A stretch of DNA of 64,000 nucleotides from Anaerolineales bacterium (GTDB lineage Bacteria; Chloroflexota; Anaerolineae; Anaerolineales; UBA4823): the NCBI GenBank assembly GCA_049281855.1, contig JBAPSY010000073.1, forward strand, positions 3,171 through 67,170. The letters run 5' to 3'. Under the pieces are notes generated by a model, which was not told where the DNA came from, searched no databases, and worked only from the letters and a program-made list of their open reading frames with translations. Shown here piece by piece: positions 7,548-60,200 of the stretch (its first letter is position 1; the number at the start of each line of letters is the position of its first letter). A program made the translations under genes and the position numbers.

Positions 7548-7979
7548 TTAGAGCGGTGGTTCCTGATCATCGTCCTCTTTGTCTAATTGGTCATCGTCTG
7601 CGCCCAATTCCAAGAGTGCTTCCTGCTCAGTCAAGCGCACCCAAAGGAAGATGAGCTGTCCTTCATCCATTTCCAGTGTGCGTGAAGCCACGATCGGCGT
7701 CTTGTGTATCAGCCCATCATTGGCACGGAATTCGAGTTGGATCGTCTGATGTTTACGCCATGCGCGGTAACACCGTTCCACTAATGATGGTCCATTAAAA
7801 GTGCGTAAACGGGTCAAGGCTAGTTTATGCAAGGATGGACTTTCATTCAGACCCAGAGGCCAGCCCTCGTGTACATCCTCAAAATTCGGGGGTGGTCCTT
7901 CAATTATTGTGATCTTGTCATCCATGTACCGGTTCCTCAGGTTTGGAATCATACCACGAATGATTGCTGGAGTAGTCAT
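7548..7979 (-). CDS. Hypothetical protein with an acidic C-terminal tail
   Basis: 143-aa ORF with no recognised family. Its C-terminus, DDDQLDKEDDDQEPPL, is strongly acidic. Confidence 0.45.
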   Translation of the reverse strand: MTTPAIIRGMIPNLRNRYMDDKITIIEGPPPNFEDVHEGWPLGLNESPSLHKLALTRLRTFNGPSLVERCYRAWRKHQTIQLEFRANDGLIHKTPIVASRTLEMDEGQLIFLWVRLTEQEALLELGADDDQLDKEDDDQEPPL

Positions 7980-42960: not shown

Positions 42961-43977
42961 ATGAACCAAATCCGTGAATATCTCAAACGACCGCTCGTAA
43001 TTGGAATTCTTGGTGTTGTGGTGGGGTTGATCATCGGCTTGGTCGTTGGTTGGGGGTTGTGGCCAGTCCAATGGACCGATGCAGCACCCACAAACCTTCA
43101 TCCGGGCTGGCAGGATATGTGGCTGAAAATGGCGGTCATATCCTATGGTGCCACTGGTGATGCTGCTACCGCGAAAGTTGAATTCGATGCACTGGGCGAC
43201 ACTGGTACTGATGCTTTGACACGATTAATGGCTAACCCGGGAAATATCGACCCAAACTATATAACTCAATTTGAAGCTGCGGTCTCAACCATTCCTCAAG
43301 TCCAACCAGGGACGGTTGCACCCGGGGTCACTCCAACCGCCTCCACAGCCAAAGGTGGAAGGTCAAACCTGACTACCTTGTTGCTTGTTATGTGTGTTGT
43401 CACACTGTTGGTGGGAGCAGCAATTGTGGCATATTTCTTTCTTCAAGGTCGAAAAAGAGCTGGTGGGATTGACCCCAGTGCACAAACACCAGCCACCGCA
43501 GTGGAAACACCGGCTGAGTGGACGAATTACCCTGCACCGAGTGAGCAAGCTCCGATGGCCCAATTTATGGCCTCTTATAAAGCTGGTGATGACTTGTTTG
43601 ATGACTCCTTCAGTATAGATTCACCCTCAGGTGAATTTCTAGGTGAGTGTGGTGTCGGTATCTCCGAAACCATTGGCATAGGCGTACCTAAAAAGGTGAC
43701 TGCCTTTGAAGTCTGGTTATTCGATAAGAACGACATTCAAACGGTAACGAAAGTGCTGATGAGCGCACATGCCTTCAATGACCCCACCATCCGGGGAAAG
43801 CTGGAAGCCAAGGGAGAACCGTTCCAGGCAAACTCAGGTGGACAGACCGTGCTCGAAACTGCCACCCTGCGGCTGGTTGCACGTGTGGTTGACATGGCTT
43901 ATGGGCAAGGAGCATTACCCGAGAGCAGTTACTTCGATTCGCTGGTGCTCGAGCTGGCCATCTGGCAGAAGCAATAA
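42961..43977 (+). CDS. Hypothetical two-TM membrane protein
   Basis: 338-aa ORF with TM helices near residues 12-33 and 135-158. The C-terminal soluble domain is unrecognised. Confidence 0.55.
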   Translation: MNQIREYLKRPLVIGILGVVVGLIIGLVVGWGLWPVQWTDAAPTNLHPGWQDMWLKMAVISYGATGDAATAKVEFDALGDTGTDALTRLMANPGNIDPNYITQFEAAVSTIPQVQPGTVAPGVTPTASTAKGGRSNLTTLLLVMCVVTLLVGAAIVAYFFLQGRKRAGGIDPSAQTPATAVETPAEWTNYPAPSEQAPMAQFMASYKAGDDLFDDSFSIDSPSGEFLGECGVGISETIGIGVPKKVTAFEVWLFDKNDIQTVTKVLMSAHAFNDPTIRGKLEAKGEPFQANSGGQTVLETATLRLVARVVDMAYGQGALPESSYFDSLVLELAIWQKQ

Positions 43978-44039: not shown

Positions 44040-44507
44040 TCATTCTATTTTGAGAATTTTTAGTTTTATATCCCCGCCGGGCGTGCTGGCGGTCACTTCA
44101 CCACCAACATGACCACCCAATAATACTCGCCCAATGGGGGATTCATTTGAGATTTTTCCATTACGCGGATCCGCTTCTTTAGCACCCACTAGAAAATATA
44201 TCTCAGGGGGGAAGTCCCCTTCCTGAACAGTGACGTGTGACCCCACTTGAATGGTATCGGTTGGAACCTCGCTAACATCAATGATTTTGGCATTCTTTAA
44301 AAGATATTCCAGCTCCTGGATTTTCCCCTCCATGAATCCCTGGTCCTCTTTTGCCTTGTGGTAATCTGCGTTCTCAGAGAGGTCGCCCATCTGTATGGCG
44401 GAGCGCAATCGTTTAGCCATTTCATCCCGCTTTGGGCCTTTCAGTTCTTCGAGCTCAGCTTCTAGCTTTTTCGCTCCTTCTGATGTTAGGTATATTTCCT
44501 GTTCCAT
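44040..44507 (-). CDS. greA: Transcription elongation factor GreA
   Basis: 155-aa ORF with the coiled-coil N-terminus (LEAELEELKG..R.E...L..A...GDLSENADYHAAKE-like) and the GreA C-terminal domain. Confidence 0.93.
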   Translation of the reverse strand: MEQEIYLTSEGAKKLEAELEELKGPKRDEMAKRLRSAIQMGDLSENADYHKAKEDQGFMEGKIQELEYLLKNAKIIDVSEVPTDTIQVGSHVTVQEGDFPPEIYFLVGAKEADPRNGKISNESPIGRVLLGGHVGGEVTASTPGGDIKLKILKIE

Positions 44508-44517
44508 GACCTTACCT

Positions 44518-45669
44518 TTAAGGCTTCATTACCGGATCAAAAAGCTTTTGATATTCTTCCACAGCAAACCGGTCAGTCATTCCAGCAATATAATCACAGA
44601 TATTGCGCTCCAGGCCACGTTCCCTCGTTAGCTCCTGGACATGATTCGGGAGTATGGCTGGCTCTCGTAAATAGGCCCGGAAAAGATCGCTGATTATCCG
44701 TTCGGCTTTTACAGCCATACGGACAACCCGATGGTGGCGGTAAAGGTTGGCGTATAGAAAATCTTTCAACTGTCGGTTCCGGCGGTTCATCTCTTCACTG
44801 AAGCTTACCACATTATAAGGTAGGCTTTGCAATTCAAGAACTGAGCGTACGCCACTCTCCCGCAGGTGTTGGTCAGTGGTATGAATTAGGTCAGTAACTT
44901 CCATATCAATCAAGTTTCGGATCATCCGGTGGCGTGACAGATCATCCAATTCTTGCCCACGCCAGCCAATGCTTTCCACCAATATTTCCCAAAGCGTAAT
45001 TCCTTCCAGCATTGGGATACTGATCATTCCTGAGCGTAACCCATCATCCAGATCATGGGCAGTGTAAGAGAGCTCATCTGCGGCATTTGTAATTTGAGCT
45101 TCCAAATGACCACGCAGTTCAGGGTCGTAAGCTTGCGCATCAGAGATATCATATTCAGATTCGTGCTTTACAATCCCCTCGCGCAATTCCCACGTAAGGT
45201 TGAGACCCGGAAAATCCAGGTAACGCTGCTCAAGCTTGGTCACGATCCGTAAGGATTGCCGGTTGTGGTCGAACCCGCCGTGATCTTTCATCAGGTGCGC
45301 CAGAGTAGTCTCCCCATTATGCCCAAAGGGTGGGTGTCCCAGATCATGTGCCAGGCATATACCTTCGGTCAGGTCAGGATTTGCACCCAAGGCGCGCGCA
45401 ATCGTGCGCCCGATTTGGGATACCTCAAGCGTGTGCGTCAGTCGTGTTCGATAATAGTCACCCTCATAGTTAATGAAAACCTGTGTTTTGTACTCCAGAC
45501 GACGAAAAGCTGTGGTATGCAGGATGCGGTCACGATCACGTTGGTAAGTGGTGCGGTACTCCGGTTCATCCTCAGGGTAACACCGCCCCTTGGAAATTTT
45601 GCTGCGCACTCCATAGGGTGCCAGGCTTTGATCTTCAATAGTTTCGAGTTCTTTGCGTGTATAAAACAT
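44518..45669 (-). CDS. dGTP triphosphohydrolase-like HD-domain protein
   Basis: RDRDRILH, RTRLTHTLEVSQIGR and HDLGHPPFGH motifs of the Dgt family. Confidence 0.9.
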   Translation of the reverse strand: MFYTRKELETIEDQSLAPYGVRSKISKGRCYPEDEPEYRTTYQRDRDRILHTTAFRRLEYKTQVFINYEGDYYRTRLTHTLEVSQIGRTIARALGANPDLTEGICLAHDLGHPPFGHNGETTLAHLMKDHGGFDHNRQSLRIVTKLEQRYLDFPGLNLTWELREGIVKHESEYDISDAQAYDPELRGHLEAQITNAADELSYTAHDLDDGLRSGMISIPMLEGITLWEILVESIGWRGQELDDLSRHRMIRNLIDMEVTDLIHTTDQHLRESGVRSVLELQSLPYNVVSFSEEMNRRNRQLKDFLYANLYRHHRVVRMAVKAERIISDLFRAYLREPAILPNHVQELTRERGLERNICDYIAGMTDRFAVEEYQKLFDPVMKP

Positions 45670-45751: not shown

Positions 45752-46555
45752 CTATAGCCTGTGAATCACTGTTCCTACTTCTTCTCCAAGGAGAGAACCG
45801 CAAACATTACCAGGTGTCTCTCCCGAAAAGATTGACGCCCTTAATTCGGGATTCACGTTAATCAGGGATATGATTTGGCGTACCTTGTCAACCATGCCAC
45901 CGGTCACATCAGTGGCAGCTGACCCCTTTAGTCCAGCTTCTATCTCCGGGAAGCTTTTGGGAGTGATCTCTGGTAGCGCTCTTGTGTTATCAGGAAAATC
46001 CCCCCAAACAAGGGGTTGGAGCCCTGCAAATAGGAGCTGGGTGGCTAGTAAGCGAGGCGCCAGATGTACAAAGAGGTCTTCAGTGGAAAGAATGGTTCCA
46101 CCAAGGATGGTGTCGAAGACCACATCACCATAGATCACCGGGATCATTCCCCGCTCGAGTGCAGTGCGGATGGGATCCAGGTCCCAGGTGGCAACTTTCC
46201 CTTCCCGGGCAATGATCATGGCTGATGGAGGAAATGAGATTGCAGGTAGATTGGCTTTACCTAAAGCCAGCATCACTAGATGATTTAATTTTGCTGCCTG
46301 TCGCCAGACTTCGATGAACCCTATCCAATCTTTCGCTGATTTCACCCCCATACGAGTTTTATATTTACTCGCCGGGACGTGACCAAAGGAGCCAGATCCG
46401 TGCCCAAGTAAAATATTTAGATTCTGGTTTTGAGCTCGAGCCCCCGCGATTTCTTGTGCCAGCCGTTCCAGCACATCCAACCGGGGAGTATGAGGCTGGT
46501 TTTTAACCGTGATTAACGAGCCACCCAATTTGAGGAAAACCAGTCGTGCGCTCAT
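45752..46555 (-). CDS. Isopentenyl phosphate kinase (amino-acid-kinase fold)
   Basis: From the ATG at 46555 (ATGA overlap with the mevalonate kinase stop): FLKLGGSLIT, GHGSGSFGH and VIYGDVVFD motifs typical of IPK. Confidence 0.78.
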   Translation of the reverse strand: MSARLVFLKLGGSLITVKNQPHTPRLDVLERLAQEIAGARAQNQNLNILLGHGSGSFGHVPASKYKTRMGVKSAKDWIGFIEVWRQAAKLNHLVMLALGKANLPAISFPPSAMIIAREGKVATWDLDPIRTALERGMIPVIYGDVVFDTILGGTILSTEDLFVHLAPRLLATQLLFAGLQPLVWGDFPDNTRALPEITPKSFPEIEAGLKGSAATDVTGGMVDKVRQIISLINVNPELRASIFSGETPGNVCGSLLGEEVGTVIHRL

Positions 46556-47499
46556 GCCTTGCGGATCTCCGTCACGATGGTGCGCACAGCGCCGGCTTGT
46601 TCCATCGCTTTGGCTACTCTGTTCGCTGCCTCGGGTGTGACGAGTGCAATCATATTTCCCCCACACCCCGCCCCCGAAAGCTTGGCACCGAGTGCACCTG
46701 ATGAACGCGCTGCCTCGATGAGCTTATCCAATTCAGGAGACGAAACCCCCATCTCGCGAAGCTGTGCCTGATTTTCATCCATCAATGATCCAAGTGCATC
46801 GACCGAACCAGCCTCAATCGATTTGCGAGCAGCGACTGCAATTGCCCCTGCTGCATCGAACAATCCCTCAAATCGGGCTTGATCAGATTCCCAGGCTTTG
46901 TGAACATCACTCACCACGCGTGAGGTGGAGCTTTGGACCCCTGTGTCACCAATCACGATGGTGAATGGTTGTTTCACCTGCAGGGTTTCAATTGGCTTTC
47001 CAATCACAAAGTACACCGGTTTTACGTATGTAATGACGGCATTGTCTATTCCGGAGGGGGTACCATGATGGATTACTTCCACCTCATAAGCCAGCTCACA
47101 TACCTGTTCATCCCTTAAGGGGTGACCCAATGAGGCTGAGAAAGCTCGCAGGATTGCTACCGAAATTGCTGCCCCTGAGCCCATCCCTCCTGCGACTGGG
47201 ATGTTGGACGTGACCCGGATGTTGCAGGCTGGGATATGGCTTAGCTTCATTACAGACGCAGCCTTCAGCAACACTGCCGCCAGGGGGTGATTTTCTGGTA
47301 AGTCAGCCAAAGTGGTTTCCAGCCCGATGTCTGGCGCTTGCACTTTCACCAGTCCGGGAGTGCTTCGTGGATCCATGTTTACAATTGCCTTTGCTCGCAC
47401 TTGCATGACGGGAACAGCAATTGCCGGACGACCATAAACCACGGCATGTTCGCCGAACAGGATGACTTTGCCTGGAGCAGTTGCAGAATATGCGGGCAT
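46552..47499 (-). CDS. mvk: Mevalonate kinase (GHMP kinase)
   Basis: From the ATG at 47499: APGKVILFGEHAVVYG, GHMP motif PVAGGMGSGAA, and SGAGCGG near the C-terminus. Confidence 0.88.
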   Translation of the reverse strand: MPAYSATAPGKVILFGEHAVVYGRPAIAVPVMQVRAKAIVNMDPRSTPGLVKVQAPDIGLETTLADLPENHPLAAVLLKAASVMKLSHIPACNIRVTSNIPVAGGMGSGAAISVAILRAFSASLGHPLRDEQVCELAYEVEVIHHGTPSGIDNAVITYVKPVYFVIGKPIETLQVKQPFTIVIGDTGVQSSTSRVVSDVHKAWESDQARFEGLFDAAGAIAVAARKSIEAGSVDALGSLMDENQAQLREMGVSSPELDKLIEAARSSGALGAKLSGAGCGGNMIALVTPEAANRVAKAMEQAGAVRTIVTEIRKA

Positions 47500-47525
47500 C
47501 GCTAATATCCTAACCAGAGGATCGC

Positions 47526-48413
47526 TTAAACTGGGAACAGGTAGAAAATGATCACAATGGCAAGTGCCCACAGGATGATCGTCACCTGAAGGGGTCGATC
47601 CGTTAAGAGTACCTCTTCTGGTTCACCACCTCGATGTTTTACCTGAACAAGGTAGAGGTAGCGGAAGATGCCATAGATCACGAAAGGGATGGTCAGCATC
47701 ATCGTGTGGTTCACCGGCAGGTTGGGAGCCGAAAATGTATACAGGCTATATGTAATGATGGCGCTACTGCAGACGATCAGGATGAGCTGGTCGAGCAATG
47801 GCAGGGTATATCCTTCCAGTGATTTGCGATGCGAATTTGCCTCTTCAGCCAGCAGGTTCAGCTCTGCGCGCCGCTTGCCAATCCCCAGGTAAAGTGCCAG
47901 GAAGGTGGTAAAGACATACAGCCATGGGGAGAAGCGGTGGACTACAATCAGTGACACACCTGCTCCCACGCGCAGTACATAAAAGCTGGCGAGCATCATT
48001 ACATCCAGGATTGGTGCATGTTTGAGCCAAGCAGAATATGCCAGGTTGAGCACCAGATAGGCTAATCCAATCAGTGCGAATTCGAGGGATAGTAAGGACG
48101 CCGGGATGAATACAATCAGCGTGAGCACGATGCCTGCTGCTCGTGCACTAGAGACTTTCAGCAATCCGGATGGTAATGGGCGCATGCGTTTTTGGGGGTG
48201 GTTTTGGTCAGCTTCCAGGTCCACCAGGTCATTGATGATGTAAATGATGCTGGATAATAGACAAAACAATACGAAACCCGCAACGATGCGTGCAAGCGCC
48301 GGCCAGTTGGTCAGCTGCTTGTCAAAGATCAAGGGAATGAACAACAGCCCGTTTTTTACCCACTGGCGGGGACGCATGGTCTTGAGAAGTGGTTGCAACC
48401 AGACGGTGGACAT
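47526..48413 (-). CDS. UbiA-superfamily prenyltransferase, decaprenyl-phosphate phosphoribosyltransferase-like
   Basis: 295-aa polytopic ORF. The N-terminal MRPRQWVKNGLLF and the Asp-rich NDLVDLEADQNHPQKRMRPLPSG match the DPPR-synthase-like branch of UbiA enzymes. Confidence 0.75.
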   Translation of the reverse strand: MSTVWLQPLLKTMRPRQWVKNGLLFIPLIFDKQLTNWPALARIVAGFVLFCLLSSIIYIINDLVDLEADQNHPQKRMRPLPSGLLKVSSARAAGIVLTLIVFIPASLLSLEFALIGLAYLVLNLAYSAWLKHAPILDVMMLASFYVLRVGAGVSLIVVHRFSPWLYVFTTFLALYLGIGKRRAELNLLAEEANSHRKSLEGYTLPLLDQLILIVCSSAIITYSLYTFSAPNLPVNHTMMLTIPFVIYGIFRYLYLVQVKHRGGEPEEVLLTDRPLQVTIILWALAIVIIFYLFPV

Positions 48414-48497
48414 GATCTAATCATAGTAGTTTACCTGAGAATCGTCAATTCAGGAAACGGGAATCTGCGTCCTCGAAACCAGAATCTCGGTTAAGAT

Positions 48498-49349
48498 ATG
48501 CACATGAGAAAAATCCGTTTGGATCTACTGCTGGTAGAACGCGGCTTAGCCGAGAGCCGTTCGCTGGCGCAACGCTTGGTGATGGCAGGACAGGTTCGCA
48601 TTAATGGTGAGGTGGAGCTGCGGGCGGCAACCAATGTGTTCCCTGATGTACACCTGGAAGTCGAACAGGGACCGCGTTTCGTCTCTCGTGGTGGTGAGAA
48701 ACTTGAAGCCGCTTTGCAGGCTTTTGAAGTGGATATTAGAGGCCATATCTGCGCAGATGTCGGTGCCTCTACGGGGGGCTTCACGGATTGTCTCCTTCAG
48801 CATGGTGCAGTTAAAATCTATGCAATCGATGTCGGACAAGGTATCCTGGATTGGAAGATGCGCCAGGATAAACGTGTGGTGGTCATGGAGAAAACCAATG
48901 CTCGCTACCTTAAGTGCTTACCCGAGGCTGTGGAGATTATTACCATAGATGTATCTTTTATTTCTCTAAAAGTCTTATTACCTGTAGTAAAGAATTGGTT
49001 TTTCACGGATATAAATACCGGGCAGAGCTCAAAGGGATCGACGATTGCCCTGATCAAACCCCAATTTGAGGCGGGTCGTCAACAAGTGGGGCGAAGTAAG
49101 GGTGTGATTCGCGATCCCGTCGTCCATCGCCAGGTGTTGATGGATATATTGGGTTTTGCTCGTCAGCAAGGATACATTGTATACGGGTTGATCCGCTCAC
49201 CGCTTACCGGACCAAAGGGGAATGTTGAATTCCTTACATGGTTGGAATGTTCTGGAGAGCAAATCGCCTCGATCGAGGAATTGGTGGATTCGGTATTGTC
49301 AGGTGCCATTGGAGGCAGCAAACCAACCAGCCTATATTCCCATAGTTAA
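48498..49349 (+). CDS. tlyA: TlyA-family rRNA 2'-O-methyltransferase (S4 plus FtsJ domains)
   Basis: RLDLLLVERGLAESRSLAQRLVMAG (S4 domain), SRGGEKL and DVGASTGGFTDCLLQHGA (SAM motif). Confidence 0.88.
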   Translation: MHMRKIRLDLLLVERGLAESRSLAQRLVMAGQVRINGEVELRAATNVFPDVHLEVEQGPRFVSRGGEKLEAALQAFEVDIRGHICADVGASTGGFTDCLLQHGAVKIYAIDVGQGILDWKMRQDKRVVVMEKTNARYLKCLPEAVEIITIDVSFISLKVLLPVVKNWFFTDINTGQSSKGSTIALIKPQFEAGRQQVGRSKGVIRDPVVHRQVLMDILGFARQQGYIVYGLIRSPLTGPKGNVEFLTWLECSGEQIASIEELVDSVLSGAIGGSKPTSLYSHS

Positions 49350-49373: not shown

Positions 49374-51176
49374 ATGACCTCGGAACATATTCGCAATTTT
49401 TGTATCATCGCCCATATCGACCACGGTAAGTCTACTTTGGCAGACCGTTTGCTTCATCTCACCGGTACGGTCTCGGATCGTGACACCACCGAGCAGATTC
49501 TGGATAGCATGGAGCTTGAACGTGAAAAGGGGGTCACGATCAAGGCTTCGGCGGTCCGGATGAACTATACTGCCAAAGATGGGGAAAAATACGAATTAAA
49601 CCTGATCGATACACCCGGACATGTGGATTTTGGGTATGAAGTCAGTCGGGCATTGGAAGCTTGCGAAGGTGCATTGCTCGTAGTGGATGCCAGTCAGGGA
49701 ATTGAAGCTCAAACTCTGGCTAATCTTTACAGTGCATTGGAAGCCGACCTGGAAATCATAGCAATTATAAATAAAATCGATTTGCCCTCAGCTCGACCCG
49801 ATGAAGTGGCACAGGATATCAGCAGCCTGTTGGGAACACCTCCCGGTGAGATTATCCGCATTTCTGCCAAGGAAGGGATCAACATCGATGCTGTGTTGGA
49901 AGTCATCGTCAAAGAAGTCCCTCCACCCAAAGGGGACGAAACTGCCCCCCTGCGGGCACTTATCTTTGACTCGCACTATGATTCCTATAAAGGTGTCGTG
50001 GCATATGTGCGTTTGATCGATGGAAGGATCGATCACACCGATACCCTGCATCTGATGGCGACCGGTTTTGATGTCAGGCCGGTTGAGATTGGTATTTTCG
50101 CTCCAGATTTACGTCCTGTTTCGTCTTTAGAAGCAGGCGAGGTGGGTTATATCGCCACAGGGTTGAAGACAGTGCACGAGTGCCGGGTGGGTGATACCAT
50201 CACCAACACTGCGCGACCTGCTGATGCCCCGCTGCCAGGTTATCGCAAGGTTAAGCCGATGGTTTACGCAGGGATATATCCGGTGGAGGGCGAGGATTAT
50301 GCAAACCTGAAGGATGCACTGGATAAATTGCAGCTGAATGACGCTTCGCTTATTTTCGAGCCTGAAACTTCCCAGGCACTTAACTTCGGCTTCCGGTGCG
50401 GATTCCTGGGCTTATTCCACATGGAGATTATCCAGGAACGCCTGGAGCGTGAGTATAACCTGGATATCCTCGTCACCTCACCCTCGGTGGAGTACGAAGT
50501 GGTGCTTCATACCGGTGAAACTATCCTGATTGACTCGCCAGCTGACCTGCCGGACGAGATGCTGATTGAGCAAATCCGTGAGCCGTGGATGAACATTGAG
50601 GTTTTCAGCCCCACGGAGTTTTATGGGACGATCATGGAGCTGACCAAGAAAAAGCGGGGAGTATTTGTCTCGCAGGATTATCCTGCTCCCCTTCGGGTAC
50701 AGCTCAATTTCCGAATCCCACTCTCTGAACTGATCGTTGACTTCTTTGATCTGTTGAAATCACGCACGCGTGGTTATGCCTCGCTCGATTATCAATTTGC
50801 AGAATATCGCCCGGATGACCTGGTCAAGCTTGAAATCCTGGTCAATGAAGAGCCAGTGGATGCCCTTGCTACCATTGTTCACCGAAATGCTGCTTATCAT
50901 AAGGGGCAAGCGGTCATCACCAAACTTAAAGAATTGATCCCCCGCCAGCTATTCCTGGTGCCCATTCAGGCCTATGCAGCCGGGCGCGTCATCTCGCGTG
51001 CAAATATTAAACCCATGCGCAAGGATGTGCTTGCCAAATGCTACGGGGGTGACATTAGCCGTAAGAAGAAGCTGTTGGAGAAGCAAAAGCGTGGCAAGAA
51101 GCGCATGAAGATGGTTGGTAATGTGGAAATCCCCCAGGAGGCTTTTCTGGCAGTGTTACGCATCGGGGAGGAGTAA
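49374..51176 (+). CDS. lepA: Translation elongation factor 4 (LepA)
   Basis: [33 protein letters not shown] and the LepA-specific C-terminus. 600 aa. Confidence 0.96.
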
Positions 51177-52188
51177 AATCGCTATCTCTTCATCAAAGAA
51201 TAATTGGAAGCGCATCCTGCCTGGCCTGATCGTCAGCGTGGCAGCCTTGGCTGTCGTTTTTTCCATGCTGGATCTTCGCAAATTTGTGCAGGCCATACAG
51301 CAAGCGGATCTTCGCTTCTTTTTCGCAGGTATTTTGTTCGAGCTGCTATGGCTGATCGTTCGAGGATTCGTTTGGCGTACATTGTTACAAAACAAGGCAT
51401 CTTATCATGATGTGTTTATTACGATCAATGAGGGCTACCTGCTCAATAATATCCTTCCATTTCGACTGGGAGAGATAGGACGGGCTTTCCTGATCGGGCG
51501 GAAAGCCCACCTGGATTTCTGGCAGGTGCTTCCCTCCATCCTCATTGAACGATCCCTTGACCTGGCAATCGCCGTCGGCTTGTTCTTGACCACACTTCCC
51601 TTTGTGATCGGGATTAGCTGGGCAAAACAGGCTGCCATTGGTACGGGGATTATTGTCCTCACTGGTTTGGCAACGATTTATCTTCTGGCTCGAAATCGGC
51701 ACCGAGTGCTTGGCTGGATAGACCAGGCAGGTCAGCGTTGGGCCCTTGTGAAAAAGCTGGCAGGGCGGCGCGTGATTGCCTTCTTTGACGGTCTCGAAAT
51801 AATCACAGATGGAAGGCTCTTTCTGCGTGCCTTGGGTTGGGAAGGTCTTGATTGGTTGGTCAGCGTTCTTCAATATTATTTATTCCTGCGGGCATTTTTC
51901 GAAGCACCAAGCTTGCTCTGGGTGCTTTTTGCCTTAGGCGTAGGTGCGCTGGGGATAGCTGCACCCTCCTCACCAGGCGCGATTGGGGTGTTTGAAGCCG
52001 TTTTGGTGGGAGCATTGGTAGTTTTTGGGTTGGATGCTTCTCCTGCAACCGCCTTCGCTTTATCCGTCCATTTCACCAGCTATATCATCACGAGTCTGAT
52101 GGGTGGTTATGGCTTGTATAAAGATGGCGAATCCCTATCCAGCCTATATACACGTCTGGGAAAGATGAAATCTGAAGGAGAAACATAG
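51115..52188 (+). CDS. Flippase-like / UPF0104 (lysyl-PG-synthase TM-region type) membrane protein
   Basis: Polytopic ORF with the family motif [16 protein letters not shown]. The annotated ATG overlaps lepA by 62 nt, so the true start is uncertain. Confidence 0.72.
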
Positions 52189-52239
52189 AGCCAGGATGGG
52201 CGAAACTATTACCTGGTTTTGTTCGTCGTTGATATTGCC

Positions 52240-53406
52240 ATGCGTATATTAGCCACCCTCACCTATTATCGCCCTCATTATTCCGGGCTAACCATTTATG
52301 CTGAAAGGCTGGCTTGCGCCTTGGTGGAACGCGGTCATCAAGTGACTGTATTGACTTCGCGCTATAGCCCCAACCTGCCAACCCGGGAAGACCGTGATGG
52401 CGTGCAGGTTATCCGTCCGCGTGTGTTGATGCATATCAGCAAGGGTGTGCTCATGCCGACGATGTTCTTTTGGGCCTGGGTAAACATTCGGCGTGCAGAT
52501 ATCGTCCACCTGCACTTGCCTCAACTGGATGCTGCCTATATTGCTCTTATCTGCCGGCTGATGAATAAGCCAGTTGTACTCACTTACCATTGTGACTTGC
52601 TCCTGCCAAAAGGATTCATCCATTCTATTGCCAATCAAGTCTCTCACCTGACCAATAAAATTTCATTGGGGTTAGCCCATCAGGTGGTGGTGAATACGTT
52701 GGATTATGCCGAAGAATCTGCTTTCCTGCGTCGTTACCTTCCAAAAATCCGTGCTATCCCCACCCCGGTCGAGCTGGCAACTCCCACCCAGGCGGACGTG
52801 GAGGCATTAAAGCGTAAAGCTAGACTGGAACCTGGGCAGCGTATCATCGGGATGGTAGCCCGCCTGGCAGCCGAGAAAGGTGTGGAATATCTGGTTGCTG
52901 CAATGCCAGAAATATTAAAGAATCACCCCTCTGTACGTGTATTACATGTCGGGCAGTACCAGGACGTCTTAGGCGAGGAAGAGTATGCGAATAAGCTAAA
53001 GCCGATGATCCAGGCTTTGGGTGAGCACTGGACTTTCCTGGGGATCTTGCCACCCGCTGAACTTTCCACGTTTTACCAGCATTGTGAGGTGACAGTCCTA
53101 CCGAGCACCAACAGCACCGAGTCGTTTGGCATCGTGCAAGTTGAATCGATGGCTTGTGGCACGCCAGTTGTCGCCTCCAACATACCCGGTGTGCGTCAGC
53201 CTGTAAAGATCACCGGTATGGGGCGCTTGGTACCTCCCGCGGACGCTCATGCTTTAGCTGAAGGGATCAGTGAGGTTCTTGATCACCCCGAACGATATCA
53301 TGGTGATGTCAATGACGTGATAAGGCGCTTTTCATCACAACACATTGCTGAAGAGTATGAGGGAGCTTTTCAGGAGCTGATCAAAGGCAGAAAAATCATT
53401 AAGTAA
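52240..53406 (+). CDS. GT4-family (GT-B fold) glycosyltransferase
   Basis: MRILATLTYYRPHYSGLTIY N-terminus and a C-terminal EsFGivqvEsMAcGtPVVAS (E-x7-E) signature. Confidence 0.88.
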   Translation: MRILATLTYYRPHYSGLTIYAERLACALVERGHQVTVLTSRYSPNLPTREDRDGVQVIRPRVLMHISKGVLMPTMFFWAWVNIRRADIVHLHLPQLDAAYIALICRLMNKPVVLTYHCDLLLPKGFIHSIANQVSHLTNKISLGLAHQVVVNTLDYAEESAFLRRYLPKIRAIPTPVELATPTQADVEALKRKARLEPGQRIIGMVARLAAEKGVEYLVAAMPEILKNHPSVRVLHVGQYQDVLGEEEYANKLKPMIQALGEHWTFLGILPPAELSTFYQHCEVTVLPSTNSTESFGIVQVESMACGTPVVASNIPGVRQPVKITGMGRLVPPADAHALAEGISEVLDHPERYHGDVNDVIRRFSSQHIAEEYEGAFQELIKGRKIIK

Positions 53407-53482: not shown

Positions 53483-54268
53483 ATGAAAGATAAAGACTTT
53501 TTGTGGTTGAACCTGCGCGAATTACCTTATTTTCGCGCCATGCTTCGGGCAGTGGAAGCGCAGTTTTATCAGGAGTTCGAGTTGCCCGCTCCCACCATCG
53601 ACCTTGGTTGTGGGGATGGGCATTTTGCCACTGTCACCTTTGACCGTAAGTTGGATGTAGGATTGGACCCATGGGCGGGTCCCATCCACCAGGCCGCTAG
53701 AGGTGGCGGTTATCGTTCACTGGTGCAGGCTGATGGGGGGAGGATGCCCTTCCCAGATGAGCACTTCGCCAGCGCGATTAGCAATTCAGTCCTTGAGCAC
53801 ATCAAACAAGTCGAACCAGTCTTGGCAGAGACACGGCGTGTACTGAAGCCTGGAGCACCTTTTCTATTCTGTGTGCCCAACCCACGCTACCTGACCGAGC
53901 TTTCCATTCCACTCATACTAAAGCGGTTTGGTTTGGCAAGTATTGGGCGTGTATATACTGAATGGTTCCGGCAAATGTCACGTACCCATCATGCAGTAGA
54001 TCCCAATAATTGGCAAAGCTGGCTTGAAGGTGCGGGCTTCCGGCTGGAAAAGTGGTGGCATTATTTTTCACCCCAGGCAATGCGTGTGTTGGAATGGGGT
54101 CACTATTTTGGCGCCCCCACTCTTCTTACCCATGCCATCAGCAAACATTGGATCATTGCCCCTTGGCGTTGGAATTTATTCCTGACGGAACGGCTTGTCA
54201 GGCAGCATGCGATTGCCCAGTCGAATCCTCAGGGCACCTATACCTTCTACGTGGCTAGAAGTATTTGA
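53483..54268 (+). CDS. Class I SAM-dependent methyltransferase
   Basis: Motif I IDLGCGDGHF, FASAISNSVLEHI and LKPGAPFLFCVPN. 261 aa. Confidence 0.85.
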   Translation: MKDKDFLWLNLRELPYFRAMLRAVEAQFYQEFELPAPTIDLGCGDGHFATVTFDRKLDVGLDPWAGPIHQAARGGGYRSLVQADGGRMPFPDEHFASAISNSVLEHIKQVEPVLAETRRVLKPGAPFLFCVPNPRYLTELSIPLILKRFGLASIGRVYTEWFRQMSRTHHAVDPNNWQSWLEGAGFRLEKWWHYFSPQAMRVLEWGHYFGAPTLLTHAISKHWIIAPWRWNLFLTERLVRQHAIAQSNPQGTYTFYVARSI

Positions 54269-55013
54269 ATCGTCATAGGCCAGACAGAATCTAGGAATCA
54301 CCCTTTTACCGAGGATTACTTCTCTAAAGGTCCTTACGCACAGGTATACTTTGCCCGCTATAGCCAGTATTGGTGGTCGAATCGCTATTATGCCAAGTTA
54401 GCTCTTCGTCATCGGCCACCTCAAGGTAGATTGTTGGAACTTAGCTGCGGGAAGGGTCATCTGCTCACCTGGCTGACAGACCGCTACCATGTTTTTGGCT
54501 GTGACATCAATCCATGGGCATTATCTCAGGCTCGGCAGAATGTGCCTCAGGGACAGTTTGTGCTGCTTTCTGGGGATGAGCCTTAACTTTCCCGGAAGCA
54601 GTTTATCATATTCTGATTGCCAAACATGTGGTCGAGCATTTGAGTCAACCGGAGCAGGCCATTGCTGAGAAGAGCCGCGTGCTGAAAGTCGGCGGCTTGC
54701 TAATCCTGGTTATACCTAATCTAAGTAAGCCTATGCGCAAGAAAAAAAGGCCAATTGGATCGGTTATAAGGATTCCACCCATATCAGCCTGAAGCCTCCA
54801 GAAGAGTGGCTGGCATCCTTGCGTCTCCATGGGTTGCAACCTCGCCGGGTTTTCTCGGATGGCTTTTGGGATACCCCTTATATACCGATTATACCCACCC
54901 CCCTGCAAAAGCTGTTCTTCGGGGCGCTCGGGGGCTTGCAAGCTATTCTTGGATGGAGTATTATTACTCTTCATATGGGTGAAAGCCTGATCATTCTGGT
55001 GGATAAAACATGA
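54269..55013 (+). pseudogene. Second class I SAM-dependent methyltransferase, disrupted (no start codon, two single-base frameshifts)
   Basis: My own three-frame translation gives three segments. Frame 2 (54269-54583) reads ...RLLELSCGKGHLLTWL..GCDINPWAL... Frame 1 (54580-~54748) reads FPEAVYHILIAKHVVEHL..VLKVGGLLILVIPN. Frame 0 (to 55013) reads KKANWIGYKDSTHISLKPPEEWL... The second shift sits in an A7 run (54742-54748). Confidence 0.7.
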
Positions 55014-57205
55014 ATCGGGAGCCAACGGTTCTGGATTATGTTAAGTCCCTCTTTAAGGGGAAGCCATTAGCGATCCCATCTGCTAAGGAAGTACCTCAAG
55101 TACCTCAACCAGTAGATGAACATCTTCTAGTGCAGCCCATAATGGTCGATCAACAGGTTGTCCCGGCTCAAGAACCGAGTCGTCGATCTCCTGGTGTTGT
55201 TTTTCCATGGCGCTCGCTGCTGGCGCTTGGGTTTGCCCTGGTGGCTCAGATTTCATTGATGCCACGCCCAAACCGGGCCTGGATTCCCGGCGTCATCTTA
55301 TATGTGTGCGCTGCAGGCTGGCTGGCGTGGGCTGCCTGGAACGGGGAATGGGTCCCAGCTGCCCTGCCCGAGGTTGAAGCGCACCTGGAGGATTACCGGG
55401 TTCGTGCCCGGTGGTTGTATATCAGCCTGCCTCTGGCTTTGGCTGCCTTCCTCACCCTGGGGGGTAATCAGTTCAACACGCTCAATGTCACGTTGTGGGT
55501 TCTGGCAATCATATTCACCACCCTGGCGTTCTGGCAGGGAGCATACCCATTCAGGGGTTGGTGGCGGTGGATAAAAGTACACCTGCACCTTCCCTTAAAA
55601 CTATCCATATCCGCCTGGACGTTGCTCGTCTTGGCTTCCGTCATCCTGGTGGTTTTCTTCCGTGCCTATCGTATTGACCAGGTGCCGCCAGAAATGGTCA
55701 GCGACCATGCTGAGAAGCTTTTAGATGTATGGGACGTATTGCATGGGCAGACGAGCATCTTCTTCCCGCGTAATACAGGTCGCGAAGCCATCCAGATGTA
55801 CCTGACAGCAGGTATCATCCAGCTTTTCAACACCGGTTACACATTTTTAAGCCTGAAGATTGGCGCGATCCTGGTAGGGTTATTGACTCTGCCGTTCCTC
55901 TATTTGCTCGGTGAAGAATTTGGCAACCGGCGTGTTGGATTATTTGCCATGTTGTTTGCCGGCATGGCTTTTTGGCCAAACGTCATCTCGCGCGTGGGGC
56001 TGCGTTTCCCACTCTATCCATTGTTCGTTGCACCCACGCTGTATTACCTGATCCGAGGTTTGCGCACCTCCAACCGCAATGATTTTATCCTGGCAGGTCT
56101 GGCTCTGGGGATTGGTTTGCACGGATACACTCCCATTCGCATCCTACCGATCGTCGTCCTGGTAGCCGTAGGTTTATATTTGTTACATCCCCAAGCCAGG
56201 GGTAAGCGCTTGCAGACGGTATCGGGATTGTTGGTGTTGGTCCTGGTATCCCTGATTCTCTTCTTACCCTTACTTCGTTTTTCGCTGGAATACCCCACGC
56301 TATTCTACCTGCGGGCTTTCTCCCGTCTGGGCACCACCGAGCGCCCTCTGCCTGGACCTGCTTTGGTGATATTTCTTAAAAACTTATGGAATGCCTCGAT
56401 TATGTACTTCTGGTCGGATGGGCAGATTTGGGTCCATTCGGTCACCAACAGCCCTACCCTGGATATTATTTCAGCTGCTCTGTACTACCTGGGTGTGGTC
56501 TTGTTGTTAATTCGCTATATCAGGCGGCGTACGTGGCAGGATCTGTTTCTGCTCCTTTCGGTTCCGCTGCTTATGCTTCCTTCCATCCTCTCATTGGCTT
56601 TTCCGGATGAGAATCCGGCATTAAATCGAGCAGCTGGTGCCATTATTCCCGTCTTTTTAATCGTCGCCGTCGCTTTGGACGGACTGATGTCTGCCATGGA
56701 GAAGCGGACACCATCCAAAGCGGGGTCAACTCTAGCTTGGGGAATGGCGGTTATCCTTATTTTCTTTGCTGCGCTGGGTAATTATGATTTGGTGTTTAAC
56801 CAGTACCAGCGTGCCTACGAACTGTCTGCCTGGAATACTTCCGAGATGGGCAAAGTCGTACATGATTTTGGTGACATGTATGGCAGCACAGATACTGCCT
56901 ATGTGGTTCCCTACCCATATTGGGTGGATACCCGCCTGGTGGGGATGAATGCAGGTGACCCGACCCGCGATTATGCCATTCCACCGGATCAGATATCGAC
57001 TACACTGAGTGATTCACGCCCCAAGATGTTCCTGGTTTATCCTGAAGATCAGACCGACTTGGACTTGTTACGTCAGCTCTTCCCTCAGGGCAATGTTTCG
57101 ACTTTTGAATCGCAGGTCGGAAAGAATTTTTATGTTTATTTGGTTCCGCCAGCTTCTACGAATTCCGGTGTAATTCCCTCAATAGGTGGGATATCGTCAC
57201 CATAA
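55010..57205 (+). CDS. GT-C-fold, ArnT/PMT (GT39)-like polytopic glycosyltransferase
   Basis: 731-aa ORF with at least 12 predicted TM helices. It has an acidic first-loop motif (VSDHAEKLLD) and a C-terminal soluble domain. Its ATG overlaps the pseudogene stop (ATGA). Confidence 0.7.
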   Translation: MNREPTVLDYVKSLFKGKPLAIPSAKEVPQVPQPVDEHLLVQPIMVDQQVVPAQEPSRRSPGVVFPWRSLLALGFALVAQISLMPRPNRAWIPGVILYVCAAGWLAWAAWNGEWVPAALPEVEAHLEDYRVRARWLYISLPLALAAFLTLGGNQFNTLNVTLWVLAIIFTTLAFWQGAYPFRGWWRWIKVHLHLPLKLSISAWTLLVLASVILVVFFRAYRIDQVPPEMVSDHAEKLLDVWDVLHGQTSIFFPRNTGREAIQMYLTAGIIQLFNTGYTFLSLKIGAILVGLLTLPFLYLLGEEFGNRRVGLFAMLFAGMAFWPNVISRVGLRFPLYPLFVAPTLYYLIRGLRTSNRNDFILAGLALGIGLHGYTPIRILPIVVLVAVGLYLLHPQARGKRLQTVSGLLVLVLVSLILFLPLLRFSLEYPTLFYLRAFSRLGTTERPLPGPALVIFLKNLWNASIMYFWSDGQIWVHSVTNSPTLDIISAALYYLGVVLLLIRYIRRRTWQDLFLLLSVPLLMLPSILSLAFPDENPALNRAAGAIIPVFLIVAVALDGLMSAMEKRTPSKAGSTLAWGMAVILIFFAALGNYDLVFNQYQRAYELSAWNTSEMGKVVHDFGDMYGSTDTAYVVPYPYWVDTRLVGMNAGDPTRDYAIPPDQISTTLSDSRPKMFLVYPEDQTDLDLLRQLFPQGNVSTFESQVGKNFYVYLVPPASTNSGVIPSIGGISSP

Positions 57206-57256: not shown

Positions 57257-60200
57257 ATGTCAACTGATAGTATGAATGATGTGATGCCTAACACCCCTCC
57301 CCAACCTGCCCCGAAGAAAAAGCGGCAGTTAGTGACACCTGTGATATATGATGTCCTGTTAGTGTATATCCTAATATTTGGTGCATTTTTTCGCTTCGTT
57401 GGCATTCAATGGGGTGATTTCCAGTACCTCCATCCGGACGAGCGTTTCCTGGTCTGGGTTGGAACGGATATCCAGCCGATAGGGACATCCCCTGAGGCAC
57501 TAGGGCCGCCACCAAATATCACCAATAACCCGTGGAGGGCAAATTTTAGCAACGCCTACCCCGATTGCCATAGCTGGGGCGGCTATTTTGACGCTTCCTG
57601 CTCGCCGCTCAACCCTAATAACCGCGGTCATTCATTTTATGTTTACGGCACGCTGCCCATGTTTCTGACCCGCTATATTGTGCAGGGGATTTATGGTCAT
57701 TCTGGTTTCAATGAAATGACCATTGTTGGGAGAGTGCTTTCAGCCCTGGTGGATTTATTATCGGTGATTCTGGTTTATGCCATCGGGTCGCGGGTATTCA
57801 GAAAACCGGTGGGCTTGCTGGCAGCTGCCTTTTCAGCCTTCACTGTGTTGAATATTCAGCAGTCCCACTTCTTTACCATGGATACGTTCTCCAGCTTCTT
57901 TACATTGCTGGCGATTTATTATGCCGTCAGGGTGAGCCTGGTGGAGGGTGAATCCAAAGCCGTTCAGTCGACTGGCGTGCATAGCTCAACCTCCCTCTCG
58001 CCTGAGGATGATGATGGAGGGCAATCCCAAACGCTTCTCTCCCGTCTCACGGTAATCGCTAAGCATCCATATTTTGGTCTCTCCATCGCCTTCGGAATTG
58101 CCTTGGGCTGCGCCGTGTCATCCAAGCTAAATTCTGCTCCGGTAGCGTTCGTGCTGCCGGTCGCGTTTGGGGTAATCATCTGGGGGAAACCCACCCAGGA
58201 GCGCACACGCTGGCTGATAAATGCCGTAATTTACCTGGGCATCGCCGCTTTTGTGAGCATTCTGGTCTTTCGAGTTTTCCAGCCTTATGCTTTCTCTGGG
58301 CCTGGCTTCTTCGGTTTGCGACCTAATCCGCAATGGGTGGCGAATATCAAAGACCAGCGCATTCAAGCCGCCGGTGATAATGATTTTCCTCCCTCCTTAC
58401 AGTGGGCAAGCCGCCCGGTGTGGTTCTCCGCCAAAAATATGGTCGAGTGGGGTCTGGGGATTCCATTAGGAATCCTGGCGGCATTGGGTTTCTTGTGGGC
58501 AGGCTGGCGCATGCTTAAGGGAGACTGGCCGCGGCATCTCTTGTTGTGGCTTTGGGGAGGTTTCTACTTCATCTGGCAGTCATTACAATTTAACCCAACC
58601 ATGCGTTATCAGATGCCCACCTACCCCATATTGGCAATCTATGCCGGTTGGGTAGTGGTGGAACTTTGGAATTTTCGGAAACTTAAGAAAGAAGACGGAA
58701 ACATCCATGAAAGCGAACCAGGAACATCCAGGTTTAGATGGGTGCGCCCGGTATCCGCCCTACTTGGCAGCTTCGTCATCCTTGCCACTTTCGCCTGGGC
58801 TCTGGCCTTTAGTCTGATCTATGCTCGCCCCATCACCCGCGTGGCAGCTTCCGAGTGGATTTACCAGAATATCCCTGCACCCATCAACTTGCACATCCAG
58901 ACTCAGGTTGGATCTTTCAGCCAGCCACTCTCGCTTCCCTACGGCAGCACCATCCAACCCAGCTTGCCGTATCAAATGAGCTTCACTGCCAATGCGAGCG
59001 GTACCCTCAACGACGTCTATCTGGCGCATGTCGCAAATACCCAGGCATTTCAACCTACCGTCTTGAATATATCCCTCTCAACTTCTTCCAATGGCGGTCT
59101 GCCCCTGATGGCAGAAGTGATGACCGTTTCTCCTGCCGTGGCAGGTGCCTCAACGTCAGACGGATACCTGCTGAAATTTGAATCACCTATTAACCTGGAT
59201 GCGGGTCAGGTGTATACCCTGACGTTGGCTCTCGTTCAGGGAGAGCGGGTCCTGGATGCGTGTGGACCATTAGGCGTCACCGTGCAGACTTCCACGGAGC
59301 TGATTGCTCAGACGGTGACTGGACCCGATCAATGTGTAATTCAACCTGGGGAACCCTATATTGTTGCCTTCACTCCTCAAGAAAATGGGCTGATGGAGGC
59401 GGTCACTCTAGGCCAGCTGGTTGACCAGACCCCTGCACCCGGGCAAGAAACACTGGTGCTCACCATTGGACCTACCGGAGATAGCCAGGTAGTGGCTACT
59501 GCCAGCCTTACTGCTGACCTCACTCTTGGAGCAAATGATCTTGGAGCAGGATATTCAATGACCTTGGATCGCCCTATGACCGTGGAAAAGGGCAAAAATT
59601 ACAGCCTCTCCCTGGCGCTGGAAGCTAGCACAGGTGTCGTCAGCATTCAAGGTTCAGCCGTTGCTAACGAAGGGGATTGGGATGATGGTCTACCCCTGAG
59701 GGTGAATGGCTATGATGCCTTTGGGGGCGTCTATACCGCCGGATTGAACTTCAATATGTATACGGATGATAACCCCGAGAAGCTGGAGCATTTCATCAAT
59801 GTATATGACCAAACCGAGTACATCCTGATCAGCTCCAACCGCCAATGGGGTTCGCTGCCACGCCTGCCGGAGCGGTTCCCAATGACCACCCTGCATTACC
59901 GCCATCTGTTGGGCTGCCCGGATGACCGTACCCTCCAATGGTGCTATAGTGTTGCCCAACCCGGCATGTTCCACGGAGATTTGGGTTTCGAGTTGGTGGC
60001 AGTTTTCCAATCTAACCCATCGATTGGCTCATTCTGGATTAATGACCAGTTCGCTGAAGAAGCTTTCACGGTTTATGACCACCCAAAGGTGCTTGTCTTT
60101 CGCAAAACCGAGGCCTATAACTCTGCACAGGCCCGCCAAATCCTGAGCCAGGCAAATTTCTCTGAGATGGTGCGGATTACCCCCAAAAAAGCCGCCTACC

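Follow-up and report, generated by a model that had tools for sequence, protein, structure and literature searches.

Why would a bacterium place a gene of the UbiA superfamily at the head of an operon for kinases of the mevalonate pathway? The question is raised by a 64,000-nucleotide (nt) stretch from the genome of an uncultured Anaerolineales bacterium (contig JBAPSY010000073.1), hereafter called the window. Three minus-strand genes, read from the sequence, occupy positions 48413 to 45752 in the order UbiA-like, mvk and IPK; the last two encode mevalonate kinase (MVK) and isopentenyl phosphate kinase (IPK). The first-pass annotation of this DNA likened the UbiA protein to decaprenyl-phosphate phosphoribosyltransferase (DPPR synthase). 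It proposed that isoprenoid supply is linked here to a lipid-linked sugar donor for GT-C/YYY transferases a few kb away. The answer that we favour, with moderate confidence, is that a class-conserved operon of UbiA phosphoribosyltransferase, MVK and IPK couples the supply of a lipid carrier to the loading of that carrier. That the product feeds the neighbouring GT-C/YYY genes is plausible.

The UbiA-family protein and its partner kinases

The first gene of the operon (47526–48413, minus strand) starts with ATG and encodes a protein of 295 amino acids (aa), predicted to be a UbiA-superfamily polyprenyl-phosphate 5-phosphoribosyltransferase of the Rv3806c/DPPR-synthase type. The protein scored 238.2 bits against NCBIfam model NF008977, for decaprenyl-phosphate phosphoribosyltransferase (cut-off 234), and 216.6 bits against NF008978, which bears the same family name (cut-off 207). 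Conversely, models for other UbiA subfamilies (EboC, haem O synthase, GGGP-type, 4-hydroxybenzoate, chlorophyll synthase and MenA-like) gave no more than 51 bits, compared to cut-offs of 180–420. For the canonical prenyltransferases, the scores (with cut-offs in brackets) were 50.6 (269), 41.0 (180.8), 29.7 (210), 28.5 (296) and 23.1 (313) bits. When the PDB was searched using phmmer, the sole match was Rv3806c of Mycobacterium tuberculosis (8j8j; E = 1.6e-40), aligned over residues 9–285. A profile of 46 diverse homologues matched the whole length of Rv3806c, at 248.8 bits. The same profile gave 53 bits on AfUbiA, 43 on DGGGP synthase, 26 on chlorophyll synthase and 26 on ApUbiA, matching the N-terminal half only. 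The sequences MRPRQWVKN (residues 13–21) and NDLVDLEAD (residues 61–69) confirm the RPxQWVKN and NDxxDxxxD motifs reported in the first-pass annotation.

The cryo-electron microscopy structure of Rv3806c defines the residues that hold its ligands (PMC10994848). Mg2+ is bound by N73 and D77. Pyrophosphate is held by a lysine and arginine cluster (R22, K87, R90 and K143), plus Y138 and K208, and the ribose is contacted by Q135. The 5-phosphate contacts are K28, Y70 and Y157; those to the acceptor phosphate are K28, Y157 and K191. This phosphoribose site is not conserved among UbiA prenyltransferases (PMC10994848). In a HMMER alignment to 8j8j, 12 of the 13 ligand and Mg residues are identical in the UbiA protein. 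The pairs, with the Rv3806c residue first, are R22/R14, K28/K20, Y70/Y58, N73/N61, D77/D65, K87/K75, R90/R78, Y138/Y126, K143/K131, Y157/Y145, K191/K180 and K208/K197. The single mismatch is Q135, replaced by N123. The lysine and arginine cluster specific to Rv3806c is kept, including the GKRxAEL segment. Across the 46 homologues, which are 38–89% identical, the ligand residues are mostly invariant or nearly so. Because of this conservation, and the identity at 12 of 13 positions, the assignment as a polyprenyl-phosphate 5-phosphoribosyltransferase is well supported by sequence. The protein is very probably an enzyme of the Rv3806c type.

A conventional prenyltransferase, acting in quinone, ether-lipid, chlorophyll or haem synthesis on a mevalonate-derived prenyl diphosphate, would also explain the operon. 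The protein is a member of the UbiA superfamily (PF01040), the JGI label of its clade is 4-hydroxybenzoate polyprenyltransferase, and a mevalonate operon would suit a consumer of prenyl diphosphate. However, the subfamily scores fall far short of their cut-offs, and the homologue profile (249 bits on Rv3806c) reaches no more than 53 bits on solved prenyltransferases. In addition, the phosphoribose-binding residues are kept along with the Rv3806c-specific cluster. We thus consider a conventional prenyltransferase very improbable, and the JGI label wrong for this UbiA clade. By both model and profile scores the protein groups with DPPR synthase, as the first-pass annotation had it, and not with the quinone, chlorophyll, haem or ether-lipid prenyltransferases.

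The UbiA protein is 100% identical to a protein from an Anaerolineales metagenome-assembled genome (MAG), which PGAP names decaprenyl-phosphate phosphoribosyltransferase. All three enzymes of the operon are of known kinds and are already correctly named by PGAP. The wider UbiA family is large, with 2287 clusters (50% identity) at E < 1e-30. Against NF006088, a longer fused UbiA family that we take to be the HAD-fused type, the UbiA domain scored 183.7 bits over model positions 191–477 of 482. The window protein, at 295 aa, carries no extra domain.

The second gene (46552–47499, minus strand) encodes a 315-aa MVK. The protein scored 256.2 bits against TIGR00549 (cut-off 163) and, in the PDB, is closest to mevalonate kinases (E = 3.7e-44). 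It has the GHMP motifs PGKVILFGEHAVVYG, GMGSGAA and KLSGAGCGG. The third gene (45752–46555, minus strand) encodes a 267-aa IPK, with 160.8 bits against NF040647 (IPPK_Arch; cut-off 120) and 29 bits against the FomA model. In the PDB it matches the IPKs 3ll9 and 3k4o at E = 1e-36 to 1e-35 (best 3.6e-36). Its HGSGSFGH segment aligns with the IPK histidine signature (HGxGSFGH) of 3ll9, a signature described previously (PMC3857490).

In Chloroflexi, isopentenyl diphosphate (IPP) is made via MVK, phosphomevalonate decarboxylase and IPK (PMC3857490; PMC9254496). MPD and IPK from Roseiflexus have been characterised (PMC3857490), and a structure of Anaerolinea thermophila PMD is among the works cited in PMC9254496. 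The identities first given to the UbiA-like, MVK and IPK genes are borne out, all three being above curated NCBIfam cut-offs. The view that MVK and IPK together mark the isopentenyl-phosphate mevalonate route, established in Chloroflexi, also stands (PMC3857490; PMC9254496). Pfam scans of all open reading frames (ORFs) of at least 150 aa found no HMG-CoA synthase, HMG-CoA reductase, MVD-like decarboxylase or IDI in the window, in agreement with the first-pass annotation.

Could the kinases instead make a sugar donor? A GHMP sugar kinase and a phosphate kinase of the amino-acid-kinase fold might together supply the UbiA protein with a sugar-1-diphosphate. GHMP kinases include sugar-1-kinases, enzymes of the IPK fold turn a phosphate monoester into a diphosphate, which makes such chemistry conceivable, and the glycan cluster of one related locus holds a second GHMP kinase. 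Yet MVK and IPK score far above their curated cut-offs whilst sugar-kinase models remain far below theirs, and among solved structures the closest are MVKs and IPKs. Furthermore, an MVD-like decarboxylase is clustered with the kinases in relatives, and Chloroflexi are reported to rely on this mevalonate route (PMC3857490). A role for the two kinases in sugar activation is thus scarcely credible.

The spacing of the genes was read from the sequence. A 26-nt spacer (47500–47525, minus strand) separates UbiA from MVK, with AGGA located 9 nt before the MVK ATG. The MVK start is most likely ATG 47499 (MPAYSATAPGK...), judged by fit to homologues and same-species gene calls; the maximal ORF begins at 47571. 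The IPK N-terminus, from ATG 46555, is MSARLVFLKLGG..., and an ATGA overlap with the MVK stop occupies 46555–46552. On re-reading, the coordinates, gene order, 26-nt gap and ATGA overlap given in the first-pass annotation were all correct. Gene calls on three independent contigs of the same species (L002–L004) give the same products, of 295, 315 and 267 aa. On a further same-species contig (L001, a 146-kb ENA contig) MVK and IPK are broken into several short ORFs at 5944–7592. The breaks are most likely indel errors of that assembly, the genes being intact on the three other contigs.

A consensus scan identified a σ70-like promoter match (TTGACG-17-TATGAT; 10/12) at 48420–48448 on the minus strand. 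This lies in an 84-nt region common to UbiA and the divergent tlyA gene. Such sites are pattern matches only, and the scanned region contains 3 compared to 5.3 expected in shuffled sequences. The end of the −10-like element is 7 nt ahead of the UbiA start codon, a position that suggests a leaderless, or very short-leader, UbiA transcript. A pattern scan of the minus strand detected no terminator-like site between UbiA, MVK and IPK, nor from IPK to the HD-phosphohydrolase and greA genes downstream. It is quite likely that UbiA, mvk and IPK form a real operon.

The gene for an HD-domain, dGTPase-like phosphohydrolase (44518–45669, minus strand; Pfam HD and HD_assoc) begins 82 nt after IPK and is found after IPK in 17 related loci. 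It is possibly part of the same transcription unit. GreA (44040–44507, minus strand; Pfam GreA_GreB_N and GreA_GreB) is encoded 10 nt further on and is kept in 16 related loci; greA is the last gene of the co-directional minus-strand run. Beyond it, on the plus strand (42961–43977), is a gene for a 338-aa protein with an N-terminal transmembrane segment and no Pfam or NCBIfam match. This gene is kept after greA, in convergent orientation, in 15 related loci. An Rfam scan of the window identified tRNA-Glu only.

Conservation of the UbiA–MVK pair in Anaerolineae

We scanned one genome per GTDB species for loci like that in the window. The query was an alignment of 10 sequences; the alignment of 46 had no conserved stretch that could be used. 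Our comparison covers the best 80 of 590 loci, all of which belong to the class Anaerolineae; the window's species is not among them. Flanking regions were compared using tblastn with the window proteins and all-against-all clustering of flanking ORFs. In the 80 loci, UbiA identity ranges from 49% to 65%, and the taxa include Anaerolineales, Thermoflexales, Ardenticatenaceae, Caldilineaceae, Ca. Amarolinea and Ca. Leptofilum.

MVK was directly downstream of UbiA in 56 of the 76 informative loci, at 50–65% UbiA identity and with a median spacing of 16 nt. For 53 loci with an adjacent MVK and enough downstream sequence, IPK was present in 31, the gap being less than 200 nt in 24. In 45 of 73 loci a divergent tlyA gene was no more than 600 nt from UbiA, and lepA was upstream of UbiA in 22 of the 48 loci having at least 9 kb of upstream sequence. 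Where IPK is absent, the genes that follow MVK vary between loci. Thus, the UbiA–MVK pair persists while its flanks differ, and at least three flank types were found. The coupling of UbiA, MVK and IPK that was first proposed holds insofar as the operon is kept in relatives, but the conserved core is UbiA–MVK, with IPK retained in about half.

In four deep-branching loci (L073, L080, L085 and L086) an MVD-like decarboxylase gene is divergent upstream of UbiA. Two of these, L085 and L086, are more distant (49% and 43% identity, respectively) and have the MVD-like gene divergent from UbiA–MVK–IPK. Both are probably from Chloroflexota, because the L085 LepA is 70% identical to that of the window and the L086 gene order is as in L085. 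We also compared the UbiA proteins by neighbour joining, with Rv3806c as the root; being a tree of one protein, the result is only indicative. The deepest branches have UbiA–MVK–IPK, and the states without IPK or without MVK are derived groups. The ancestral cluster was probably an MVD-like gene divergent from UbiA–MVK–IPK, from which the conserved UbiA–MVK core was derived. The UbiA phosphoribosyltransferase gene is, we conclude, a part of the mevalonate gene cluster of Anaerolineae. Since the core is UbiA–MVK, and a decarboxylase homologue is also attached in some lineages, the primary link of the UbiA gene is to the mevalonate cluster and not to the GT-C locus.

The wider set of loci contains other arrangements. 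A gene for an RseP-like M50/PDZ protease adjoins the MVD-like gene in L085 (6659–9174) and L086 (5469–7955). Two Anaerolineales MAGs have tandem duplicate UbiA-type genes in place of UbiA–MVK (L071, 5419–7160; L081, 3888–5629), and the products are 50% and 44–45% identical to the window protein. In MAGs of Ignavibacteria and Desulfobacterales (L087, 8001–9948; L088; L089, 7196–10042) a DUF362 gene follows that of a UbiA homologue. The Desulfobacterales locus has the order PAP2–UbiA–DUF362, with flanking PAP2 phosphatases, and lies inside an lpxD-lpxB-lptFG-lpxK cluster with a PMT_2 gene nearby. This context suggests pentose modification of lipid A or lipopolysaccharide.

The neighbouring glycan locus and the fate of the product

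Two divergent housekeeping genes, tlyA (48498–49349, plus strand; Pfam S4 and FtsJ) and lepA (49374–51176, plus strand), separate the operon from a glycan locus. The lepA product is a 600-aa protein (GTP_EFTU and LepA_C), as called on a same-species contig. The next gene (51115–52188, plus strand) encodes an MprF-type membrane protein with a 'flippase-like domain' (LPG_synthase_TM; PF03706, E = 1.9e-39; TIGR00374, 68.8 bits, cut-off 43.2). Such a gene is upstream of UbiA in 20 related loci, and the protein is a candidate flippase for a lipid-linked sugar. The last 62 nt of lepA (51115–51176) fall within its maximal ORF, and the two genes appear to be co-transcribed. The start is uncertain, because gene callers gave products of 355 and 307 aa on other contigs.

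A GT4 Leloir glycosyltransferase gene follows (52219–53406, plus strand; Pfam Glycos_transf_1 and Glyco_transf_4), and occurs with GT-C genes in 15 loci. The gene after that encodes a class I methyltransferase (53483–54268, plus strand; Methyltransf_11); the flanking-ORF cluster presumed to represent it occurs with GT-C genes in 8 loci. A second class I S-adenosylmethionine-dependent methyltransferase is present in pieces, in different frames, at 54431–54792 on the plus strand (LELSCGKGH... and VLKVGGLLILV...). A frameshifted pseudogene or a fault in the assembly would account for the pieces.

The GT-C locus starts 6.6 kb from the UbiA operon. Its first gene (55010–57205, plus strand) encodes a 731-aa membrane glycosyltransferase of the GT-C fold (PMT_2; PF13231, E = 7.9e-11), with no NCBIfam match and no PDB match by sequence. 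The second (57257–62851, plus strand) encodes an 1864-aa fusion of N-terminal PMT/PMT_2 and C-terminal DUF2298/Chlor_Arch_YYY regions (PF10060, E = 4.9e-109; PF13231; PF02366; TIGR03662, 471 bits, cut-off 300). A third GT-C-like gene (62848–64000, plus strand; DUF2298, PF10060, E = 1.9e-70) has a start codon that overlaps the preceding stop as ATGA, and its translation contains the motif ISYYYFGY. This gene runs off the window, so the GT-C locus has at least three genes and extends past 64 kb.

Related glycan clusters contain further genes. In L005 (2614–3420) a second GHMP kinase gene, whose product is 25% identical to the window MVK and possibly a sugar kinase, is located between the methyltransferase and GT4 genes. 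An NAD-dependent epimerase/dehydratase (PF01370/PF16363) is encoded in 12 loci (L007, L011, L012, L022, L027, L028, L031, L034, L037, L039, L049 and L072; for example L027, 5256–6284). In several of the 12, the gene is positioned between the GT4 and flippase-like genes. This enzyme, which the window lacks, could diversify a sugar in the same glycan pathway.

The first-pass annotation proposed that the UbiA product feeds the GT-C/YYY proteins encoded at 55–64 kb. In favour, the adjacency of UbiA and GT-C genes is found in two distant clades: that of the window, and one comprising L064, L068, L076 and L083 (51–53% UbiA identity). The adjacency is also kept without an intervening lepA in L032 and L037. 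Searches with Pfam and NCBIfam models identified no GT2-type polyprenyl-P-sugar synthase in the glycan locus, which leaves the UbiA enzyme as the one lipid-sugar synthase in the vicinity. The combination of synthase, flippase and GT-C also resembles that of pentofuranose systems (PMC11127046), and in Desulfobacterales a homologue accompanies PAP2 phosphatases and a PMT_2 gene.

Several observations weigh against our reading of the operon and of its link to the GT-C locus. The margins by which the UbiA protein exceeds its cut-offs are small (238.2 compared to 234, and 216.6 compared to 207). UbiA has no adjoining MVK in 20 of the 76 informative loci, where it is often beside rplM, truA, rplQ and rpoA (named by sequence reading), so the UbiA–MVK coupling is not obligatory. 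By tblastn, only 16 of 48 loci have a GT-C homologue no further than 10 kb from UbiA, and jackhmmer searches of all ORFs of the 80 loci, with both GT-C modules and the YYY domain as queries, added none. This proximity tracks lineage, being found in 14 of 22 loci with IPK compared to 2 of 26 without (Fisher p = 5e-5). In the GT-C-proximal loci a whole 13-gene block is collinear, including lepA, tlyA, the dGTPase-like gene, greA and topA. Because the block also keeps housekeeping genes, GT-C proximity is weak evidence for a common function. In NCBIfam the GT-C proteins fall into no family whose donor is known, and they have no meaningful match among solved structures. Finally, Pfam scans of ORFs of at least 150 aa found in the window no PAP2 or HAD 5-phosphatase, no DprE1-like (FAD_binding_4/ALO) protein or DprE1/DprE2 pair, and no MATE or GtrA flippase.

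Of a synthase, flippase and GT-C set, the window has the synthase and three GT-C genes, split by tlyA and lepA, with an MprF-type protein as the only flippase candidate. A GtrA-type flippase was also sought at 54268–55010, and only methyltransferase fragments were found there. The sole short-chain dehydrogenase/reductase of the window (11371–12117) is 35 kb away among fatty-acid-type genes. The dGTPase-like HD phosphohydrolase was considered as the missing 5-phosphatase and set aside, with no evidence for it beyond position. Given a window without 5-phosphatase and epimerases, the predicted donor is polyprenyl-P-ribose, with the sugar as ribofuranose. The mycobacterial analogy first drawn, with its arabinose donor, finds no support in the window, and ribofuranose is the default prediction.

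A rival explanation is that the gene order carries no special meaning. UbiA, mvk and ipk could be essential housekeeping genes in a slowly rearranging core region, co-transcribed without regulatory significance, with the GT-C genes close by through inherited order. The collinear block with its tlyA, lepA, dGTPase-like, greA and topA genes, the lineage-linked proximity of GT-C genes and the 20 loci without an adjoining MVK all fit this explanation. Conversely, UbiA–MVK outlasts the other adjacencies (56 of 76 loci, compared to 45 of 73 for tlyA and 22 of 48 for lepA). The pair is embedded in at least three flank types, with variable genes after MVK, and a third mevalonate gene adjoins UbiA in deep branches, an instance of thematic clustering and not of random retention. 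An absence of any special coupling is therefore rather unlikely.

A different concern is whether the product, though correctly predicted, serves other acceptors. It might be used by GT-C enzymes encoded elsewhere, or enter another glycoconjugate, whilst the proteins of 55–64 kb draw on another lipid-linked sugar. The donors of PMT_2-type GT-C enzymes are commonly polyprenyl-P-hexose or aminoarabinose compounds. Those of the window match no arabinosyl- or ribosyltransferase family model, and 32 of 48 loci have UbiA without a GT-C gene within 10 kb, jackhmmer included. Such a division of labour is a real possibility, which the absence of a GT2 polyprenyl-P-sugar synthase in or near the glycan locus, the flippase-like gene between the operon and the GT-C genes, and the recurrence of the arrangement in two distant clades argue against. 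Use of a lipid-linked pentose by the PMT_2/YYY GT-C proteins, flipped by the MprF-like protein, remains our tentative proposal. The first-pass annotation took an operon not conserved beside GT-C genes in relatives as refuting its suggestion. GT-C neighbours do recur in relatives, so the suggestion is not refuted on that ground, but adjacency in 16 of 48 loci, linked to lineage, is weak support.

A proposed pathway and its relation to known systems

The predicted functions can be arranged in a pathway. MVK would phosphorylate mevalonate to mevalonate-5-P, a decarboxylase encoded elsewhere in the genome would convert this to isopentenyl-P, and IPK would yield IPP; MVK and IPK would thus be the first and last steps of the lower route. 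IPP would then be elongated to the polyprenyl phosphate carrier. Enzymes of the Rv3806c type take 5-phosphoribose from PRPP and attach it to polyprenyl phosphate (PMC10994848; PMC11127046). The UbiA-type enzyme, at the cytoplasmic face, would accordingly be expected to join these substrates as polyprenyl-P-ribose-5-P. A further phosphatase, possibly encoded outside the window, would remove the 5-phosphate to leave lipid-linked ribofuranose. If the genome also encodes epimerases outside the window, the sugar could be epimerised before it is flipped and used. The MprF-like protein (51.1–52.2 kb) may flip the lipid-linked pentose, for use outside the membrane by the PMT_2/YYY GT-C proteins (55–64 kb). 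Co-transcription would tie carrier synthesis to carrier consumption.

In M. tuberculosis the DPA pathway comprises Rv3806c, the Rv3807c phosphatase, DprE1/DprE2 and the Emb/Aft GT-C arabinosyltransferases. The likeness lies in the first enzyme, homologous over its full length (E = 1.6e-40) with 12 of 13 ligand residues shared, and in GT-C proteins encoded nearby. Unlike the M. tuberculosis system, the 64-kb window has no PAP2 phosphatase and no DprE1/DprE2 pair, and its GT-C proteins are of PMT_2/DUF2298 types without a match to Emb or Aft models. Mycobacteria use the methylerythritol phosphate (MEP) pathway, whereas the window UbiA gene shares its predicted operon with kinases of the mevalonate pathway.

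Three-component pentofuranose systems provide a second comparison. That of Citrobacter youngae consists of the ORF15 PRP-PPPRS, a MATE flippase and a GT136 GT-C enzyme (Kelly et al. 2024, PMC11127046). The logic of polyprenyl-phosphoribose synthase, flippase and GT-C is alike. However, the window synthase lacks the fused HAD domain, there is no MATE gene but only the MprF-type candidate, and tlyA and lepA intervene so that the genes do not form one compact cluster; the host is also different, being of the Chloroflexota.

With respect to the Haloarchaea-type mevalonate pathway of Chloroflexi (PMC3857490; PMC9254496), the window MVK and IPK are clear members, and an MVD-like gene is clustered in relatives. 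What differs is the phosphoribosyltransferase as operon gene 1. PMC3857490 and PMC9254496 mention no UbiA-family gene in the cluster, and the terms 'UbiA' and 'prenyltransferase' do not occur in PMC3857490.

Bacteria with the MEP pathway have uppS-cdsA-dxr-rseP clusters, in which dxr and rseP are adjacent. Here too an isoprenoid-precursor gene is kept with genes for the lipid carrier and envelope, and L085 and L086 encode an RseP-like protease. The differences are that the window pathway is mevalonate rather than MEP, and that the partner is a carrier-consuming phosphoribosyltransferase rather than a carrier synthase.

The isopentenyl-phosphate mevalonate route in Chloroflexi, and lipid-linked pentofuranose systems in several phyla, are known already. 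Literature searches returned nothing relevant on DPPR synthase or DprE1 in Chloroflexi, on DUF2298 glycosyltransferases, or on UbiA in Chloroflexi mevalonate clusters, which is no proof of novelty. Apparently undescribed is a phosphoribosyltransferase as the first gene of a mevalonate operon across Anaerolineae, for which we found no report. The same applies to a possible pairing of the synthase with an MprF-type protein and DUF2298 GT-C enzymes, in place of PAP2/HAD, MATE/GtrA and Emb/Aft/GT136 components.

Anaerolineae, filamentous bacteria that abound in sludge, sediments and the subsurface, have a cell envelope that is almost unstudied. A UbiA phosphoribosyltransferase, of the type that starts mycobacterial arabinan synthesis, is present in all 80 loci retrieved and is usually paired with MVK. 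Such a distribution suggests that a lipid-linked pentose pathway has a housekeeping role in Anaerolineae. A bolder scheme, which we hold to be unlikely, is that the whole class makes an envelope polymer, or the decoration of glycoproteins, from polyprenyl-P-pentofuranose, a strategy like that of mycobacteria in a distant phylum. DUF2298/YYY proteins would be the pentofuranosyltransferases and MprF-type proteins the flippases, and transcription of the synthase together with mevalonate genes would make supply and use of the carrier increase in step. If DUF2298/YYY proteins do use the donor, a large family of membrane proteins of unknown role would gain a function. The UbiA–mvk pair itself is a marker of the mevalonate gene cluster of Anaerolineae.

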